Origin: Eledone cirrhosa
Lineage: Eukaryota
Reading direction: 5' to 3'
DNA: 64,000 bases
Assembly: GCA_964016885.1 (NCBI GenBank)
Contig: CAXHJY010001743.1
Location: forward strand, 1 to 64,000
Positions 3,201-62,917 of the stretch are shown here, one piece after another. Every line of letters begins with the position of its first letter. Within the stretch, counting starts at the first letter, position 1. The notes beneath the pieces were generated by a model that saw only the letters and a program-made list of their open reading frames with translations, had not been told where the DNA came from and ran no database searches. The position numbers and the translations under genes were made by a program.

Positions 3201-3465
3201 TTATTATTATCCGATATAAAACGCACGAATACTTGTGTTTTTAACATCGTAACTAAACACATTTCTGCCACTAGTTTTATGAAATATTAAATGTTAAAAT
3301 ATGAGCGATTAAATATCAGAATCTCTAAATATTAAACACACACACACACACACACGCACATATATATATATATATATACATACATAAATACATACATACG
3401 TACGTACGTGGATACATACATACATTTATGTACCAATATTTGCATATACATATATACATATATGC

Positions 3466-6273: not shown

Positions 6274-6280
6274 ATATATA

Positions 6281-6430
6281 TAACGAAGGAAGTGTGGTAA
6301 AAAACCATGTGAACCATAACGCGCCAGAGTACTCAATACTTTGGGTAGTAGAGTGGGTAATAACAAAATGTTCAAGACCCCGACGGCAGAGCTCAAGCCA
6401 TTTCGACTGCTATTTCTGGAAATAGCTGTC
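6281..6430 (-). mobile_element. Family Z: short HHR-bearing 3'-end element inserted in (TA)n
   Basis: Homologous to 23677-23788, 33489-33680 and 55189-55378; minus strand shows stem II hairpin GACAGCTATTT-CCAG-AAATAGCAGTC, GAAA, stem III and GTC. Confidence 0.75.
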
Positions 6431-6446
6431 CAGAAATAGCTGTCCA

Positions 6447-7677
6447 GAGCGCCTCCTCTTCCGCTTTTTGTGGAAGGGACGCGCTCCCATGGTCAGACGA
6501 TCCATCTGCTGTCAACACCCGTTGCGTGGAGGACTGGTCATGCCGTGGCTGATGATGCGCAAACATGCGCTGAAGCTTCCTTGACGGTGAACAAGTGTCG
6601 TCGCCGTTCGCCAGGCACGTTTTCCCACAGCTCGTCTCCTTGATGGAGCTGCAGTCCTTGGTCAGGAAAAGACCGAGGGATAGCGCTTGGAAACTGAAAT
6701 GTCTCCAGGCGCTCACTGCCCTCTGCCAGCTGGGCACCAGTATCGGTGGAACATCCACCTCGGCGTTTTATAGAGGACTAGTGGAGGGGAAGAGCGACGA
6801 GATTCTCGGAGATATCCTGGGTGTCGAAGAAGATCGGCTGTTTGCTCTCTTCCGGAGAACTTTCAGCCCAGCGCCTATAGATAACTTCCAAAAATCCCTG
6901 GCTTGGCAGTGCTACCGGGGAGCGCTGCCGGTTCGAGATAAGCTCTACAGGCACGGAAGTGCCGTCAGCCGAGCCTGTCCGAGATGCGCGCAGAGCGACG
7001 AAACCGTCGTGCACGCACTCGTTCAGTGCCCGAGCATTGCTGACTTGTGGAGCTATGTCGAACAGTTGCTGTCGCGTGTAGGACTGATCCGGTTATCGAC
7101 TGAGTCCATTGTGCAGATAGTCTCGCCGTCTTATTTCGAGGAGGAAGGGCAGACGGTTTTCCTCTGCCTGGTGGCCATGGCGAAAAAGATTGTGTGGTGG
7201 ACAAGGTTGAAAGGGTTAAAGACAGATACTTTCATCATCCGCGAATACATAATTAACTTTTTCAAGTTTCACTTATAGAGGAAATTCAGGGTGGAGAGGC
7301 AAGTGCTGCCTTCTAGCAAGTTTGTTGAAAGGTGGGTGAATGTAGCGAGAATGGTCCGAGTGAACGGGACCACTCTGAATATACGTCTGTAGTTTGAGAA
7401 ATGTAAAAATTGAGCGAGGGCGCTTGCCCTGGTGGTCAGGGTGGCCGTGGTCTTTTGCGCGGTTTTCGCCACGAGTAACCCTCAGAGGTTTCCCCCCTAT
7501 TGGGGAATTTTTCATTGTTTCAATTTTCATTTTTATTCTTTATATATATATATTTCTATGTCTTTTTTCTTTTTTTATATGTATAATAAAAATATTTACA
7601 CGCACAAAACCCACATCGTACCGCCCTGTGCCGTCTGTAATGTTTTTCTTGGTATCAGCCCTTGTGGCCAATAAAGA

Positions 7678-7700
<23 letters not shown>
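6447..7700 (+). mobile_element. Tx1/L1-group LINE 3' fragment (end of RT, zf-RVT CCHC, 3' UTR, AATAAA and (ATT)n tail)
   Basis: ERLLFRFLWKG...GGL upstream of ORF 6595-7278, which contains WQCYRGALPVRDKL..CPRC....ETVVHALVQCP; frameshifted end; AATAAA at ~7670. Confidence 0.85.
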
Positions 7701-7708
<8 letters not shown>

Positions 7709-8219
7709 TAACCAGCGACATGATAACGAATGACTCCCACCCAAAGAAATTATGCAGCAATACCGCAATGAATCCATTTATGAAAAGCTTCATGCTTATC
7801 AACAAACAAAGAAATCATACATTGCTATTGCTGTGCAATTTCTCTGGGTGGAAGAGGTTGGTTATCATGCAGGGAGTGTTTCTCAAGGAGCTTCTTACTA
7901 TCTCCAATGATATTATCTGCCTCCTGAAGAGAGACTGCTTCTATAGATGAGCTTCTACACTCAGTGTTTCATAGATGTAGACGAAGGGATGTGATGTGAC
8001 ACTCAAATACTCTCTGAACTGATGTTAAGCCCGTGTCTCCCTATTTACTTTTCAGATAGAGTCGGTCAATGTCACTGTTGGTGTAGAGATTGCCAGTGCC
8101 GTTTAGAACGTTTTAGGCTTTAACATCAATTGCTCAGTTCTCATCTAGCGTCCATTCAAGCAGTCTAAATGTTGGTGTTAGCACAATTACATACATAAAT
8201 GTTCATTGCTACTTCTTGT

Positions 8220-8730
8220 CAGAAGAGTGACATCTCTTAATTGACCATTGCACGGTTATGTTCACGTAGGTAACTTTTTAGACCCGCTTTTGTTTTGCAA
8301 GCATGTTTAATGATATGACATTTGAACTGTCTATCTCCTGGCAATACCGGCTGGGATGTGTCTTCATACATTTTACCATGTCTTGTCAGTCCACCAACTG
8401 ACTTGCAAATTAATCCACACTCACTACAAATATACCACGGAGTGTGTGGCGGTAGAACCACCTCACAGTTGGCTCAATTTCTCCTTGGCTCGGGTTATTT
8501 TAGAAGGTTAACAAAACCAGCTCCTGGTGGAAGGAATCGGCCACATTTTTCTGCCGGATTTTTGCAAGCACTACATTTGAGTCCCGCTTACAGAGTGAAC
8601 ATTTCAAAACAATAAACCCCATTTGCTTTTTCTCAAAGACATCACATCCATATTTGATGATCTTTCTGCATCTTTCTGGCCTTCCGCCAGTCTCTCCCAG
8701 TTCTCTATATCAAGCTTCAGAGCTTTAAGA
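8220..8730 (-). mobile_element. RTE LINE 3' fragment with degenerate C2H2 zinc fingers
   Basis: ORF 8237-8461 CSECGLICKSVGGLTRH and KTKAGLKSYLREH parallels the C-terminus of the 50995 RTE ORF; upstream ENWERLAEG. Confidence 0.75.
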
Positions 8731-9385
8731 CACATACATAAATGCATACATATAAATAGGGGCTACAAGGAAAGTGAATAATAAGTATCCGTTTTATGAA
8801 ATATCAAACAATCGCTCAGTACTCCCTCATTCTACAATAGATCTTGTAATACAGTTATCACCCTTGTGTATTTAAGGGCTCAGAAGTCATGATCAAAATA
8901 CAACGTCAGTGTCTGGCTCGCTCTGCAGTCATTGTAAACTTCTTCCAGTTATGCGCCATAATATTTGAACTAAATTATATATGTATTTTAATAACACAAA
9001 TATGCAAAAACACTGAGATTCTCTAAGATTAAATAATGCCTCCTTGGCGGTTGTCTAATACTACCGGTTCTATGAAAGCTGTAGGAAAATCATGTCTAAA
9101 GCCACTAACGATGGCTACACGCCTGGCCGAATGTTATAACTTTTCTTCCTTCACAAAATTGTTATCAACTTGAAGTAAGTAGAGTTTAAATTGGGTTAGA
9201 AGTCCAGAAGAACTGTGAGTTTGTTCAAACATTCATTAACGTAGAGATAATTTTCACAATATTCACACTTACATACACAAACATCATAGTCACATAGGTG
9301 TGTAAACCTTTGTAAACCTATCTATCAATTTATATGCATATGTTTGCGTGTGTGTGTGTACGGATGTATGTATGAATACACATAT

Positions 9386-9466
<81 letters not shown>

Positions 9467-9553
9467 CTTTATATATATAAATACATATATTCACGCGTAC
9501 TTGAGTTCGAAATCATCCCTGTGTGTTTGGATGTATATACATGTGCATGTTTA

Positions 9554-9630
<77 letters not shown>

Positions 9631-9647
9631 ATATATATATGTGTGTG

Positions 9648-9684
<37 letters not shown>

Positions 9685-10021
9685 TATTATGAGTGTATAT
9701 ATGTAATGTATGCATGTATGTAGGTATGTAATGTATGTATGCATCTATGTATGTGTGTATATATATAATGTATGTATGTATATAATGTATGCATGTATGT
9801 ATATAATGTAAGTGTGTATGTACATATACACGTGTGTCTGTGTGTATATATATGTGTGTATATATGAGTGTGTATGTGGTGTGTACATAAAACAGATATA
9901 CTTGTGAAGGAATGTGCTGGCAAACTATAAGTAGTTAGCATAAACCAGTTGACATTGATCCGCTGACAAAAAAGTTAAGTATATATTTGTGGAGCGGACA
10001 CAGCAGTTATAGCTGGATAGA

Positions 10022-10192
<171 letters not shown>

Positions 10193-16969: not shown

Positions 16970-17034
16970 AGATGGACCGATCGATGTATGGATACATTGT
17001 ACTGTTGACCATGTTATTTTTCACTCTTTCACTA
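16838..17034. repeat. Inverted repeat (~65-bp arms around (CT)n/(AG)n) related to the 3' end of the adjacent Penelope-like element
   Basis: GTGAAAGTGTGAAAAATAACATGGTCAACAGT matches 15108-15140 and occurs in both orientations. Confidence 0.8.
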
Positions 17035-17643
17035 TGTCAGGTCACCAATTGGTGCAACTGGTAACATGTATCCCAGTACAACATGTCTCATGGTCGGGTC
17101 GTTGGCGACTAATCTGGCAACCCCACCAAGGTTTCTTGGTGAGGAGGGGGACTTTGGACATCCTGCAGGACTAAAAACAAAACCTGTCAAAGGGCAAAGG
17201 AGCTCTTAAGAGTCAATGGTCATCCAAAATCACCGGGAGAGATGACCCCTTAGCCTTTGTCAAGGCAGAATTCTAGGAGAAGGATAACTTTGATATAACA
17301 CCTGCAACCCTGATGGTATCCAATGATGTTGACATCTTCTTCTTTTTGGTAAATATCATCTTGGTTAAGAGAGTGGGACTGGCTTTGTGCAGTGCCTTTG
17401 CTCACTATAAAAGCTTCACGGCACAGGCATTGCTTTATATCTGGAGATCTCTCTGCACTTGTCGTCACATGATACCATGGGCCCAGCACTATGTGTCAAT
17501 AATTGTCACAAGTGTAGTGTTTGTACCAGAGTGTTCAAGTCGCTGGCTGGACTAAAAAGTTACACTCGTTCAGCGCATCGGTAGGAGTTCTCCTACATGG
17601 ATATAAAGTAGTGGCCGTACTCGAAAACGAGTTGGCAGCAACT
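17035..17643 (+). mobile_element. Family Y1: bipartite non-autonomous RTE derivative (RTE 5' UTR plus last zinc finger and 3' UTR)
   Basis: Near-identical to 57386-57998 (-); GGAGAAGG..AACT motif; 17507-17584 encodes HKCSVCTRVFKSLAGLKSYTRSAHR*, similar to the RTE C-terminus CRLCARHFRSLAGLKSHIRSQHC*. Confidence 0.8.
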
Positions 17644-17659
17644 ATATATATATATATAT

Positions 17660-18918
17660 AGTAATAATGAATGCGAAGACTTTGATTCTCACACGCTTCA
17701 TCGCCCTTGCTCAAAGGCTGCTCTTCAACTATGGCATTTGGTCGCTGTTGAACTCTGTTTCTCATATTCTCTAGATAAAATTCTCTTTCCTCTGGATTCA
17801 TATAATTTCTTCTCTCGTGATCTCTGTTTCTCCTATTCTGTAGATAAGTTTGTCTCTCTTCTGGATTCATGTAATTTCTTCGCTCTTGAACTCTGTGTCT
17901 ATTTTTCTGTAGATAAGCCTATCTCACCTCTGGATTCATGTTAATTCTTCTATCATGATCTACGTTTCTTCTATTCTGTAGATAAGCCTCTCTCTTTCTG
18001 GATTCATGATATTTCTTCTGTCATGATTTCCACTTCTTCTATTCTGTAGATGAACTTCTCTTCCTCTTTGCTCATATCATTCCTCCTTTCTTTTTTCTCG
18101 ATTACAGATTGCTTGCGGCTCTTCTGCTTGTAACCGTTGTCGTTGGCTTCTTTGTCGCTCTCTCGCTGCCTCTCTTTGTTGACTTATTCTATCTTGCATT
18201 TTTAAGAATGGTGGTTAGAGATGATTTTTGTCATAAATAAAAAACTTGTAACAATAAAAAAAAAACTAACTGAGGGTAAAGCATTACCTATTTGGTGGAG
18301 GTAAAAATAGAGTGTATTATCAATTTTCAACTTACCTATAAATGACTATGTAATTACTGAAAGCGTGACACACGCGGTCAGACGTACGGTACGTAGGTAC
18401 AGGCGTATTAATATATAAATATATAATTATATGTATACATACACCCATATTTACATGTGTATTTGGTGTATACGTTCGTATGTGTGCGGGTATATGTGTT
18501 GCGCCGGTTTAAGTACGTGTGCGCGTGTTTATGGGCTCGTGCATGTATATGCATGCATGGCGTATGTTTTCGCGTATGCATGTGAATTAACGTAAATATT
18601 TACATTATTCTTAACTCCGAAGCCGAGAATCATTCGGTTTCCTAAATAGAATATTAGTCTACGACTCCATTTATACCATAAACGTGGTTTTGTCTTTGCG
18701 AGTATTTGTTCTCAGCGGTCCACATAACGACGTATTATCTTCGCTTTTTTCCGTTTATTGCCAGGGAACGTCTTCAAGAACCAAAATCTTCCTGTTGCAA
18801 CGTTTTTCGAAATATTTACTTCTGCGTTCACAGATTGATTTTTATAGTTTCAGAAGATCCCGTTAAGGGTGAAAGCAGCGATTCTTTGCTTAAACTTTAA
18901 TCTGTTAATTTAATAAAT

Positions 18919-23676: not shown

Positions 23677-23788
23677 ATAGGAACAAGTAAGACCCCTTAC
23701 TTGTTCCTATTACCCACTCTACTACCCTAAGTATTGAGTACTTTGGTGCGTTATGGTCCACCTGATTCCTTACCACATTTCCTTCGTT
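23677..23788 (+). mobile_element. Family Z copy with a short 5' inverted arm
   Basis: Nearly identical to 55286-55378; flanked by (TA)n on both sides. Confidence 0.8.
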
Positions 23789-23884
23789 ATATATATATAT
23801 ATATATAGTAATAATAATAAATGTGAAGATCCCGTTAAGGGTGAAAGCAGCGATTGTTTGCTTAAACTTTAATCTGTTATTTCA

Positions 23885-33479: not shown

Positions 33480-33488
33480 TAGATATAT

Positions 33489-33680
33489 AAAGAAGGAAGT
33501 GTGGTAAAGAACCAGGTGGACCATAACGCACCAGAGTACTCGATACTTAGGGTAGTAGAGTGGGTAATAGGAAAGAGTCAGGACCACCACGGCTGAGCTC
33601 CGGCTGTTTCGACTACTAGATCCGGATCTAGCTGTCGAAACGGCCGGAGCCTAGCCGTCGGGGTCCTGACTCTTTGCCTA
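33489..33680 (-). mobile_element. Family Z copy with fold-back inverted duplication
   Basis: Arms 33568-~33620 and ~33626-33680, centred on GATCCGGATC. Confidence 0.8.
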
Positions 33681-47989: not shown

Positions 47990-48129
47990 TTGGTCCCGGT
48001 CAAAGTTAGAGGTATTAAAATGCGTTTCCTCAAATAACTGAGGAACCGTATATATATATATATATATACGGTTCCTCAGTTACTTGAGGAAACGCATTTT
48101 AATACCTCTACCTTTGACCAGGACCAAAA

Positions 48130-54756: not shown

Positions 54757-54847
54757 AGATGTCTGATGAGCTTTTGATTCTAGAGTCAGGCCCGATCGAC
54801 ATAGATCGAACATTGAGCTTACTAATTCCGAAACGCACGTCACGCCT
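54757..54847 (+). ncRNA. Hammerhead motif with long stem II
   Basis: AGATGT-CTGATGA-G..C-GAAA-CGCACG-TC-ACGCCT. Confidence 0.55.
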
Positions 54848-55142
54848 CAACAAATGTAATGTAAATTTGGCACCTCGTCCATATCATTATTATTATTACA
54901 CTTTGCTTATACACATATATAATAAGTTACAACAGTGACATATACAGGTACATATAAATAAAAATGGCTACATGGTGATTTTGGAAAATATAAATCTCCA
55001 TTGTAGCCCTTTTTATTCATATGGCAGGCTGAATGAGTTGGGATGTATAACCCAATGAAGCTTAAGTACCTGTATATATATCCCTGTTGTAACTAATTAT
55101 ACTTAAATTGTGCTATGGTCTGTGTGTTCTTACCAAACTTAT

Positions 55143-55188
<46 letters not shown>

Positions 55189-55193
<5 letters not shown>

Positions 55194-55378
55194 AACCAGT
55201 AAGACCCCGACGGCTGAGCTCAAGCCGTTTCGACGGCTAATTCTGAATTAGCCGTCGAAACGGCTTGAGCTCAGCCGTCGGGGTCTTACTGGTTCCTATT
55301 ACCCACTCTACTACCCTAAGTATTGAGTACTTTGGTGCGTTATGGTTCACCTGGTTCCTTACCACATTTCCTTCGTTA
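55189..55378 (+). mobile_element. Family Z copy with a perfect 54-bp-arm palindrome
   Basis: 55189-55242 is the exact reverse complement of 55246-55299; (TA)n on both sides. Confidence 0.85.
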
Positions 55379-55401
55379 TATATATATATATATACTGTAC
55401 T

Positions 55402-55433
<32 letters not shown>

Positions 55434-55585
55434 ATATGACAACAACCAACAACAACAACGGCAACACCACCACCAGCACCAACAAGAGCACCAACAAAGA
55501 CACCATCTGCACCACCACCACCAACAACAACATCAACAACAACTACAAAACAACATCAACAACAGTTATTCGACCAACTAATAAT

Positions 55586-55775
55586 TGTTTCTACTTTTGG
55601 CACAAGGCCATCAAATTACACCAGTGTATTACTGGTACTTTATTTTATCGACCCCGTAAGGATGAAAGGCAAAGTTAACCTCGGCAGGATTTGAACTCAG
55701 AATGGCAAGGGCCGTAACTCTACGCGTCAAAGCATGGCGTCCGACCCTCTACCGATACTACCAATCCATCGCCCT
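55586..55775 (-). mobile_element. Meta-like tRNA SINE
   Basis: Same head and core as the other copies. Confidence 0.85.
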
Positions 55776-57179: not shown

Positions 57180-57998
57180 TGTAGTGTTTGTACCAGTGTT
57201 TTCAAGTCGCTGGCTGGACTAAAAAGTCACACTCGTTCAGCGCATCGGTAGGGGTTCTCCTACATGGATATAAAGTAGTGGCTGTACTCGAAAACGAGTT
57301 GGCAGCCACCATGTATACATGTATGTATGTATGTATGCATACATGCATACATGCATGCATGCATACATACATACATACATGTATACATGGTGGCTGCCAA
57401 CTCGTTTTCGAGTACGGCCACTACTTTATATCCATGTAGGAGAACTCCTACCGATGCGCTGAACGAGTGTGACTTTTTAGTCCAGCCAGCGACTTGAAAA
57501 CTCTGGTACAAACACTACACTTGTGACAATTATTGACACACAGTGCTGGGCCCATGGTACCATATGACGACAAGTGCAGAGAGATCTCCAGATATAAAGC
57601 AATGCCTGTGCTGTGAAGCTTTTATAGTGAGCAAAGGCACTGCACAAAGCCAGTCCCACTCTCTTAACCAAGATGATATTTACCAAAAAGAAGAACAAGT
57701 CAACATCATTGGATACCATCAGGGTTGCAGGTGTTATATCAGAGTTTTCCTTCTCCTAGAATTCTGCCTTGACAAAGGCTAAGGGGTCATCTCTCCCGGT
57801 GATTTTGGATGGCCATTGACTCTTAAGAGCTCCTTTGCCCTTTGACAGGTTTTGTTTTTAGTCCTGCAGGATGTCCAAAGTCACCCTCCTCACCAAGAAA
57901 CCTTGGTGAGGTTGCCAGTTTAGTCGCCAACGACCCGACCATGAGACAGGTTGTACTTGGATACATGTTACCAATAGCACCAACTGGGGACCTGACAC
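57180..57998 (-). mobile_element. Family Y1 full copy (57386-57998, -) tail-to-tail with an inverted 3' fragment (57180-57312, +)
   Basis: Reverse complement of 17035-17643. Confidence 0.88.
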
Positions 57999-58180
57999 AC
58001 TGTATGTATGCATGCATACTACGTACGTACGTACGTACGTACATACATACATACGTACATACATACATACATACATACATACATACATACATACATACAT
58101 ACATAAATACATACATACATACATACATACATACATACATACATACATACATACATACATACATACATACATACATACAG

Positions 58181-62116: not shown

Positions 62117-62150
62117 CTTCTGATGAAGGATAAACGTCCGAAACGTCAAG
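62117..62150 (+). ncRNA. Minimal hammerhead motif lacking a stem III loop
   Basis: CTT-CTGATGA-AGGA.TAAACG.TCC-GAAA-C-GTC-AAG. Confidence 0.6.
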
Positions 62151-62917
62151 TCACCTTTCCTACTATATCGAACGTTAAATAATAAATATCTTAGTTTTAG
62201 TTCAATACTTTATTTACCATTCTATGTGATAATCCTACTTGGGTATCTATCATTGATATTCCAAAGAAACATCCTATGAAATGGAACCTTATATGATGAC
62301 AACTATACCTATATATGTATGAGTTGTATCAACGGCATGATAGCAATGGAGCCCCTTCTCATTAAAATACAAAAGAAACGTGTGAAATATCACCAGATAG
62401 GATGTCAGTTAAACTTACTTAGGTATGAGATGTAACACCTGTAAACACAGGAGTTCTTATTATTAAAAGACCAGAGAAAGCTCATAGGTAAGCCTACATA
62501 GAGGTGAACAGACGTCACCTCTTTTCCGTGGGAGTAGCGGGAGTGATGAGAATGATGATATTGCGTTGTTTTTTTAATACATGTGTGGGCTGGAGGAGTC
62601 GAGGTTATGGAGGTGTGTTCATTAAGTAGTTATATAATTGGGTGTGGCCGAGCAATACGGTAATGAAAGGGGGATAGGGTAACGATAGGTGGTGGGAAGT
62701 TAAGTGGTTAAGTTTAATAGATTTAGTAGATGCGGAGACATATAATGAAATATATGAATGGACGTTAGAAGTGAAAAGTATATAGAACTGATTGTGAATA
62801 CTTTAAAAATAACTGTCGGGGGTCGTGATTAACTTCTTGCTGATTATTATATGAGAACAGCTGTGTGTGTGTGTGTGTATGGTGTGTGTGGGTGTGTGTG
62901 AATGTGTATGTGTGTGT

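Follow-up and report, generated by a model that had tools for sequence, protein, structure and literature searches.

A perfect palindrome in Eledone cirrhosa, probably formed by two complementary DNAs of a Penelope-like element joined head to head

Introduction

How does a short stretch of a mobile element come to stand in a genome twice, head to head, with perfect arms? The question is raised by a palindrome at 55189-55299 of the DNA analysed here (the window), which comprises positions 1 to 64,000 of the forward strand of contig CAXHJY010001743.1 from Eledone cirrhosa (assembly GCA_964016885.1). The palindrome carries one half of a hammerhead ribozyme, and a preliminary description had proposed that nascent complementary DNA (cDNA) of a Penelope-type element snapped back on stem II of that ribozyme and primed its own copying. 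We consider it likely that the palindrome is instead a short insertion of a Penelope-like element (PLE) into a TA repeat, in which two cDNAs primed from opposite strands ran off the 5' end of the RNA and were joined head to head. Craig et al. (2021, PMC8557442), Cervera and De la Pena (2014, PMC4209133) and Frangieh et al. (2024, PMC11167929) list as open questions how inverted and tailed PLE insertions arise and whether PLE hammerheads cut in vivo.

Results

Structure of the palindrome

In a palindrome search of the whole window, 55189-55243 and 55245-55299 formed an exact palindrome with 55-bp arms and a single unpaired T at 55244. It was the longest complex palindrome in the window, and the runner-up had arms of 24 bp. 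The perfect palindrome described earlier was thus confirmed, with arms of 55 rather than 54 bp, the outermost pair being common to the element and the TA repeat. The insertion extends beyond 55299, since the direct arm continues for about 80 nt to 55379-55382, where (TA)n begins; the extent first given, 55189..55299, therefore covers the palindrome but falls short of the end of the insertion. Element coordinates are used below, in which 0 is the first base 3' of the predicted hammerhead cut (window 55280). The inverted arm reached -36/-37 and the direct arm -35, so that the inverted arm extended further 5'. The axis lies in the distal loop region of stem II, 4-5 nt 5' of the stem II 3' strand; it had been placed in stem II just 5' of GAAA, which is correct for the region but not for the paired part of the stem. 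The hammerhead 3' half, with GAAA, stem III, GUC and a stem I strand, was located at 55257-55285 as described. The parts of the insertion are as follows.

55150..55190, no strand: (TA)n target repeat, left flank; from the sequence, and the inverted arms of most copies adjoin (TA)n, also in raw reads
55189..55245, minus strand: inverted arm, element +19 back to -36/-37; from the sequence, the +19 outer end being frequent in other copies
55243..55245, no strand: head-to-head junction with an overlap of 0 or 1 nt and without the native loop; identical in copies L088, L153 and L183
55245..55382, plus strand: direct arm, element -35 to about +99/+102 (end ambiguous within TA); from the sequence, 88 of 90 subfamily copies continuing as TA
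55249..55256, plus strand: predicted hammerhead stem II 3' strand, its 5' partner missing from this copy; from the pairing in full copies
55257..55283, plus strand: hammerhead 3' half (GAAA core, stem III with palindromic loop, GUC, stem I 3' strand); from the sequence
55257-55260, plus strand: GAAA of the 3' half
55260-55278, plus strand: stem III of the 3' half
55279/55280, plus strand: predicted hammerhead cut; arm ends of other copies pile up exactly there
55280-55283, plus strand: stem I 3' strand of the 3' half
55300..55382, plus strand: PLE tail, about 80 nt, on this arm only; in tandem units it continues into the 5' untranslated region (UTR) and the open reading frame (ORF; ATG at +190)
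55380..55430, no strand: (TA)n right flank with short interruptions; from the sequence

The unique bases outside the (TA)n flanks, 55140-55149 and about 55424-55436, match as reverse complements for about 10 nt, and a near-copy lies between them. Entry of the element into the loop of an older TA hairpin, or copying of a flank by repair, may lie behind them.

The family and its parent element

A 30-nt pattern from the 80-nt extension had 28,016 exact matches in the 3.0-Gb genome, whereas its reversed control had none, so the family is not a product of chance. At six of the 30 loci of the first family search the sequence ran on upstream rather than turning round. One of the six reached the end of an endonuclease-like frame; upstream of L017 and L061 stood only the last part of an ORF, 5'-truncated. 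A search with the endonuclease-end piece found the parent, a head-to-tail array with a period of 3,542 bp and 99.8% identity. The unit has one open frame of 786 codons with its ATG at +190 and a 3' UTR of 1.2 kb, and the hammerhead sits at the unit boundary. Exact junctions between the pseudo-long terminal repeat (pLTR) and the ORF numbered 146, which indicates that tandem or partial-tandem pLTR units are present.

In alignments the ORF showed the reverse transcriptase (RT) motifs QFDI and YRDDG and a GIY-YIG-type VIY...YIG with conserved R, E and N. These domain names rest on motifs, because the Pfam search returned no hits and the PDB search none below E 1. Of 8,000 scored candidate proteins, 2,155 matched the ORF at E<=1e-20, nearly all of them unnamed. 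The ORF and six homologues shared the Hydra-clade motifs RWR, SDKT, CNCPDRSIC (CxCx5C), CNLC (CxxC) and CKH (CxH), with VKT in place of DKT in one homologue. Judged by motif, the parent is an endonuclease-containing (EN+) PLE whose single ORF would encode an RT and a GIY-YIG-type endonuclease, and the protein motifs together with the (TA)n target place it provisionally in the Hydra clade. The Penelope-type parent proposed earlier is borne out by the ORF motifs, the tandem pLTR units, the inverted truncated copies and the tail. An identity as a retrozyme or a miniature inverted-repeat transposable element was rejected, as the copies are dispersed, carry half a ribozyme, vary at their centres, have a tail on one side and derive by truncation from a parent with an ORF.

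Other arrangements of the element were also seen. Copies L019, L144 and L145 are long-armed versions of the same palindrome, with arms of about 470, 1,575 and 2,330 bp. A 55-bp tandem array of several kb (L142 7116-10000 and L143 1-742) adjoins the PLE array. At G000:C2:356030072-356031899 there are seven pLTR-ORF junctions with a 299-bp period, a satellite or retrozyme-like array derived from the PLE.

The hammerhead of full copies

Full copies contain, in order, a 4-bp stem I, TTGAnAA, stem II with a 33-nt distal region, GAAA, a 6-bp stem III with a palindromic loop, TC and stem I. Both halves were matched exactly at 3,428 places in the genome, with G, A, T or C at position 7. The core is a U3-A8 variant, and copies L040, L089 and L148 carry C3 with A8. 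With the core nucleotides and three stems in order, full copies would form a whole type I hammerhead. Stem I and a 5' core upstream of stem II had thus been rightly predicted for them, while the core is TTGAnAA and not the expected CTGANGA.

Two fixed outer ends in a TA target

The outer ends were read in two samples. Sample A consisted of 100 listed places of the 28,016-match tail pattern, parsed by script; sample B, after one duplicate and the final nine had been set aside, comprised 90 of 100 listed places of a pattern specific to one subfamily (7,124 matches). Scoring found an inverted arm in 71 of 100 copies of sample A and in 66 of 90 of sample B, and its outer end was +19 in 52 and 58 of these, respectively. 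Direct arms entered TA at about +99 to +102 in 88 of the 90 subfamily copies. The stretch of about 80 nt between the +19 and about +100 ends, present on one arm, is the PLE tail; L044 and L088 have tails on both arms. In the anole element, the region separating two internal start sites of the RT constitutes the tail, and the two target strands are each cut and then extended (PMC11167929).

Raw reads of three runs of restriction-site-associated DNA sequencing (RAD-seq) contained both ends next to a loosely defined (TA)n, at +99 in 7,398-10,149 reads and at +19 in 2,596-2,907 reads, together with strand-change joints having one side at -40 to -45. This support concerns the fixed ends and strand-change joints of the family, not the locus 55189-55299 itself. 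Piles of read ends at -34 and -45 sit on AATT; they were taken as restriction-site ends and not used as evidence.

In four copies (L048, L058, L064 and L118) the inverted arm is full and the direct arm nearly tail only, a pattern that resembles twin priming of the long interspersed element LINE-1 (L1) on one RNA, with the first cDNA halting at the second primer.

Symmetry of the inner ends

Symmetry was counted with a stricter parser and in the single-subfamily set only, because the earlier parser misplaced diverged copies (e.g. L031, L035, L067, L082 and L108). The 90 copies comprised 63 with an inverted arm, 10 long ones and 17 short ones without inversion. When the inversion axes were plotted, they proved non-random, as had been expected: both arm ends lay between -30 and -60 in 44 of 63 copies, and in none of these 44 beyond -45. 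The direct arm extended further 5' in 24 copies and the inverted arm in 23, while both were equal in 16. Snap-back on stem II needs a direct arm that is further 5', a loop of at least 3 nt and a native loop in sense orientation. The required loop and overlap were found in 3 of 63 copies, and the arms overlapped at the junction by 0-2 nt in 40 of 63. Since these counts differ from what snap-back needs, it was not supported.

The junctions of the whole family were tallied by eye, over the first 100 matches listed per genome search, on contigs C1-C4. Where both arms reached -44 (1,281 matches), at least 35 of the 100 listed junctions were zero-spacer palindromes. A native loop on one arm stood in the snap-back orientation in 3 of 100 and in the mirror orientation in 2 of 100.

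The two arms were identical over 50 nt in 40 of 109 comparisons, in which two two-tail loci are counted twice. Different linked subfamily variants stood on the two arms in L007, L074, L088 and L216. Both arms would derive mostly from one RNA or one source locus, and sometimes from two. In L222, L220, L163, L009 and L020, the final 11-25 nt of an arm are repeated head to tail at the junction (fourfold in L222), perhaps through repeat addition by a telomerase-related RT or through templated insertion by end joining.

Positions and added bases of the inner ends

The axes cluster at two places, mainly between -35 and -45 and in a smaller number of copies precisely at 0, the predicted ribozyme cut. 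At -41 (799 matches), 19 of 100 listed junctions combined a non-native C following the inverted arm with a non-native G preceding the direct arm, often with one A or T in between, and the reverse order was found in none. Single inserted bases at -41 junctions were C in 9, G in 15, A in 3 and T in 0 of the 100 listed. Binomial and Fisher tests were run on the added-base counts at -41. The paired pattern was also present in 10 of 100 listed junctions at -36 (223 matches), a position at which native extension would yield the reverse order. Among 85 loci without inversion (100 listed matches, 15 duplicates removed), -41 was preceded by T in 57, by G in 21, by C in 5 and by A in 2, and a G at this place is neither native nor part of the TA target. 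A master copy with four Ts before -41 was considered and rejected, as only 1 of 100 native loops has four Ts. The extra A or T near -41 may be end addition or slippage.

In the cut-site class of short palindromes (329 matches), 31 of the 100 listed junctions had both arms exactly at 0 with a non-native insert. One arm was at 0 in a further 16, while 20 were blunt, 14 ambiguous and 19 elsewhere; the 20 blunt junctions could also be produced by a 2-nt overlap. Single inserts at these junctions were A in 6 and T in 6. In the subfamily set, 5 direct arms started at 0 compared with 18 over 34 upstream positions (L220 was dropped as a mis-parse), an excess at 0 with a Poisson p of about 3e-4 (computed with 19). 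These counts suggest that cDNA ends gain C, then often A, at a presumed capped end, and only A at a presumed ribozyme end.

Positions -36, -41 and -45 are each an A preceded by a pyrimidine. Such words are initiator-like and resemble polymerase II starts. An intron acceptor at -39 or -34 was rejected, because the upstream exon is absent at the junctions and the arms pass both sites. A downstream promoter motif at +18 to +29 from -45 matched at 9 of 12 positions, which was too weak to count. Penelope of D. virilis has been described as having a TATA-less internal promoter and a mapped start site (PMC2377424), and the untemplated 5' G of L1 and SVA insertions has been ascribed to copying of the cap (PMC3287187).

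Other copies and features in the window

Besides the main palindrome, the window contains three copies of the family.

23677..23791, plus strand: family copy whose inverted arm ends at the predicted cut site or one base off; from the sequence
33486..33680, minus strand: older, diverged palindromic family copy, 85% identity; from the sequence
6279..6450, minus strand: family copy with a short inverted-arm remnant and a local duplication at the junction; from the sequence

Hammerhead-like motifs of different families, with a CTGATGA core and GAAAC, lie at 54763-54841 and 62120-62152, both on the plus strand, and the latter resembles the minimal PLE type. A palindrome at 48019-48098 has 24-bp exact arms around a TA core and CTGAGGA...GAAAC on both strands, and is possibly another PLE remnant. 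An inverted pair of 631 nt with 96% identity is formed by 17030-17660 and 57372-58002. The window is rich in microsatellites, which dominate the output of repeat finders, and a repeat near 55640-55760 resembles one of octopus genomes; together with the 3.0-Gb assembly, these features would suit a cephalopod host. No hammerhead family appeared among the 150 of 468 Rfam matches of the window that were listed, which were microsatellite-driven microRNA matches only.

Discussion

Proposed joining of two cDNAs head to head

The route that we prefer can be set out from the template to the joint. By analogy with the anole PLE, +19 and about +100 would be two internal RT start sites, and both target strands would be nicked and extended by the protein; the left (TA)n flank, 55150..55190, would have primed the cDNA that became the inverted arm. 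Positions -41, -36 and -45 would be capped transcription starts inside the stem II loop, the extra G being the copied cap, while 0 would be the uncapped end left by self-cleavage, where the RT would add A only. The two cDNA ends would then be joined with an overlap of 0-2 nt or small inserts, through host end joining or a jump of the RT onto the other cDNA. Such end-to-end jumping is known from R2. On an RNA starting at -41, the RT start sites would lie 60 and 140 nt from the cap, and internal starts so near the cap would account for the great excess of short palindromes over long copies. As such an RNA lacks the ribozyme 5' half at that end, the end could not self-cleave. The template may be mRNA or transcripts of short copies. 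The pile-up of arm ends exactly at the predicted NUH site lends indirect support to self-cleavage there. For PLEs in general, we are inclined to believe that inverted ends are joints of two target-primed cDNAs rather than products of self-priming, and that their axes mark RNA 5' ends at single-base resolution, namely capped starts in stem II and a self-cleaved end.

Several observations weigh against this reading. The start sites, the caps and the cleavage are all read from DNA, and the by-eye tallies have the scope given above. A single C or G at -41 can be native in a minor variant of the loop, and therefore only the paired C...G count and the inversion-free copies carry weight. A C before or a G after -40, seen in L056, L077, L090, L197 and L211, is not explained by the cap model, and the limit near -45 is also where the inner hairpin of stem II has its apex. 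Among the 30 of 146 ORF-joined upstream repeats that were inspected, none started at -41; most of them were long, and a few ended at or near 0 or at -25. The arms agree closely, C/T at -4 being discordant in 5 of 109 comparisons compared with about half under random pairing, and such sharing of subfamily variants is predicted by snap-back as well. The hammerhead fold was not the predicted minimum (-21.5 versus -25.5 kcal/mol, z -1.16), where folding programs ignore the hammerhead core. The anole ribozyme needed protein, and a search for RNA reads that stop at the cut site of the anole hammerhead found none (PMC11167929).

Alternative explanations

Two cDNAs might also have been joined after the RT stalled at the stem II tip or on meeting a bound protein, the extra C being a sequence-dependent terminal addition. 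Stalling would suit the hairpin apex at -45 as well as the capped starts having been read from DNA and the C or G beside -40; moreover, -41 and 0 differ in the base that is templated last, so that context could choose the added base. Nevertheless, the GC-rich stems have already been passed by -35, and the extra base occurs at an A after a pyrimidine (-36 and -41), as at polymerase II starts. Runs of A/T added at -44 resemble stuttering at a template end, and the G is also present without a second arm. We regard stalling as unlikely.

Snap-back, in which a single cDNA folds in stem II and copies itself, was the earlier proposal. Its appeal lies in the subfamily variants that the arms mostly share, in the location of most axes in the stem II region, and in the few junctions that keep the native loop in sense orientation (L053 and the 3 of 100 listed). 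The direct arm shows no bias, however, and fitting geometry is confined to the 3 of 63 copies mentioned above. Zero-spacer palindromes are impossible from an intramolecular fold, mirror-image loop junctions occur, and the second class of axes, at the cut site, lies at least 24 nt from stem II. Paired non-native bases on both arms and arms from different subfamilies are equally at odds with a single folded cDNA, which would also leave the fixed +19 end without reason. Snap-back is an improbable main route and as such is largely refuted, although a small minority of copies may have formed in this way.

Longer or looped palindromes could have been trimmed at their centres later by hairpin or cruciform repair, so that the junctions would be a record of repair. 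Some copies do look repaired: L052, L112 and L226 are microhomology deletions between internal repeats, L048 and L118 are without most of one arm, and templated duplications are found in L009, L020 and L222. Later trimming, however, would not leave both arms ending precisely at the cut site or carrying identical non-native bases, and perfect palindromes persist, as do long-armed copies with intact centres (L019, L144 and L145). We hold this explanation to be very improbable for the family.

A fold-back artefact of reads or assembly deserves mention, as perfect palindromes can be artefacts and the raw-read support is at the level of the family; it is practically negligible, given that mirroring of the flanks ends after a short stretch, that the +19 versus +100 asymmetry is constant across copies, that old copies have diverged arms, and that raw short reads of three samples contain both (TA)n-adjoining ends and strand-change joints. 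Fusion of sister ends after replication was rejected because the flanks differ, as do the two outer ends.

Comparison with known systems

The element shares with the Hydra-clade PLEs (PMC8557442) a single ORF, a C-terminal endonuclease, the (TA)n target and a hammerhead at the 3' end; the motifs RWR (here; RWK in homologues), DKT (for DKG), CxxC and CxH (around the conserved E and N) and the CxCx5C linker; and inverted 5'-truncated copies with a tail on one end. The Hydra-clade elements are mostly below 3 kb, whereas the present one has 3.5 kb with a 1.2-kb 3' UTR, and PLE tails of 30-40 nt compare with about 80 nt here. The Hydra hammerheads in File S2 of that study all have CTGAnGA, in contrast to the U3-A8 core, long stem III and 33-nt stem II loop found here, and the hammerhead listed for Hydra-1_Obim differs from the present one. 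A canonical hammerhead core and a length under 3 kb are usual but not strict traits of the clade (PMC8557442).

The Poseidon element of Anolis, PAc (PMC11167929), is similar in that two fixed ends 3' of the hammerhead delimit the tail, the target is AT-rich and the hammerhead sits at the unit boundary. RT starts were mapped in vitro for PAc, but not joining or inversion; here genomic copies pile up at the cut site. The inverted pLTRs of Penelope in Adineta vaga (PMC3846280) are also head-to-head, with a tail on one arm and a palindrome at the junction. Those junctions were read as self-priming, possibly on an antisense template, whereas the present counts favour two sense-templated cDNAs. Twin priming of LINE-1 (PMC11702581) offers a parallel, both target ends priming on RNA and the cDNA ends being joined with microhomology. 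L1 twin priming inverts a different part of the RNA, whereas here both cDNAs would copy the same part from two fixed internal sites, which yields a palindrome. The cap-derived 5' G of L1 and SVA (PMC3287187) is matched here by an extra G that would mark complete copying to the cap. The PLE hammerheads of Cervera and De la Pena (PMC4209133) likewise have U3-A8 for C3-G8, G10.1-C11.1 and a palindromic loop 3, and are mostly solo copies from truncated PLEs. They are minimal motifs thought to need dimers, in contrast to the 6-bp stem III found here; evidence of cleavage in vivo was absent from that study.

PLEs are already known for inverted truncated copies, tails, TA targets and U3-A8 hammerheads. 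The literature searched, including PMC11702581, bioRxiv 10.64898/2026.07.22.740005 and PMC13282606, contained no report of PLE inversion axes at RNA 5' ends, of PLE copies ending at the hammerhead cut site or of genomic traces of hammerhead cleavage; subscription papers, the reviews first describing these structures, Repbase entries and most supplements lay outside the search, and an earlier mention may exist there.

Significance for PLE biology

Tens of thousands of young junctions in one family make both the insertion route and hammerhead cutting testable from sequence. The junction counts argue against the published self-priming and tie the tail to two primers on opposite strands. The two-cDNA reading predicts base-exact ends, with caps at -41, -36 and -45 and a 5'-OH end at 0. 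Within this 3-Gb genome, the family likely accounts for a large share of the perfect palindromes and of the half-hammerheads that stand alone. If the reading is true, hundreds of genomic DNA records of germ-line cleavage by a PLE hammerhead, and of reverse transcription of its product, would be preserved here, and promoters and ribozyme activity should become mappable in the same way wherever a genome is rich in PLEs.
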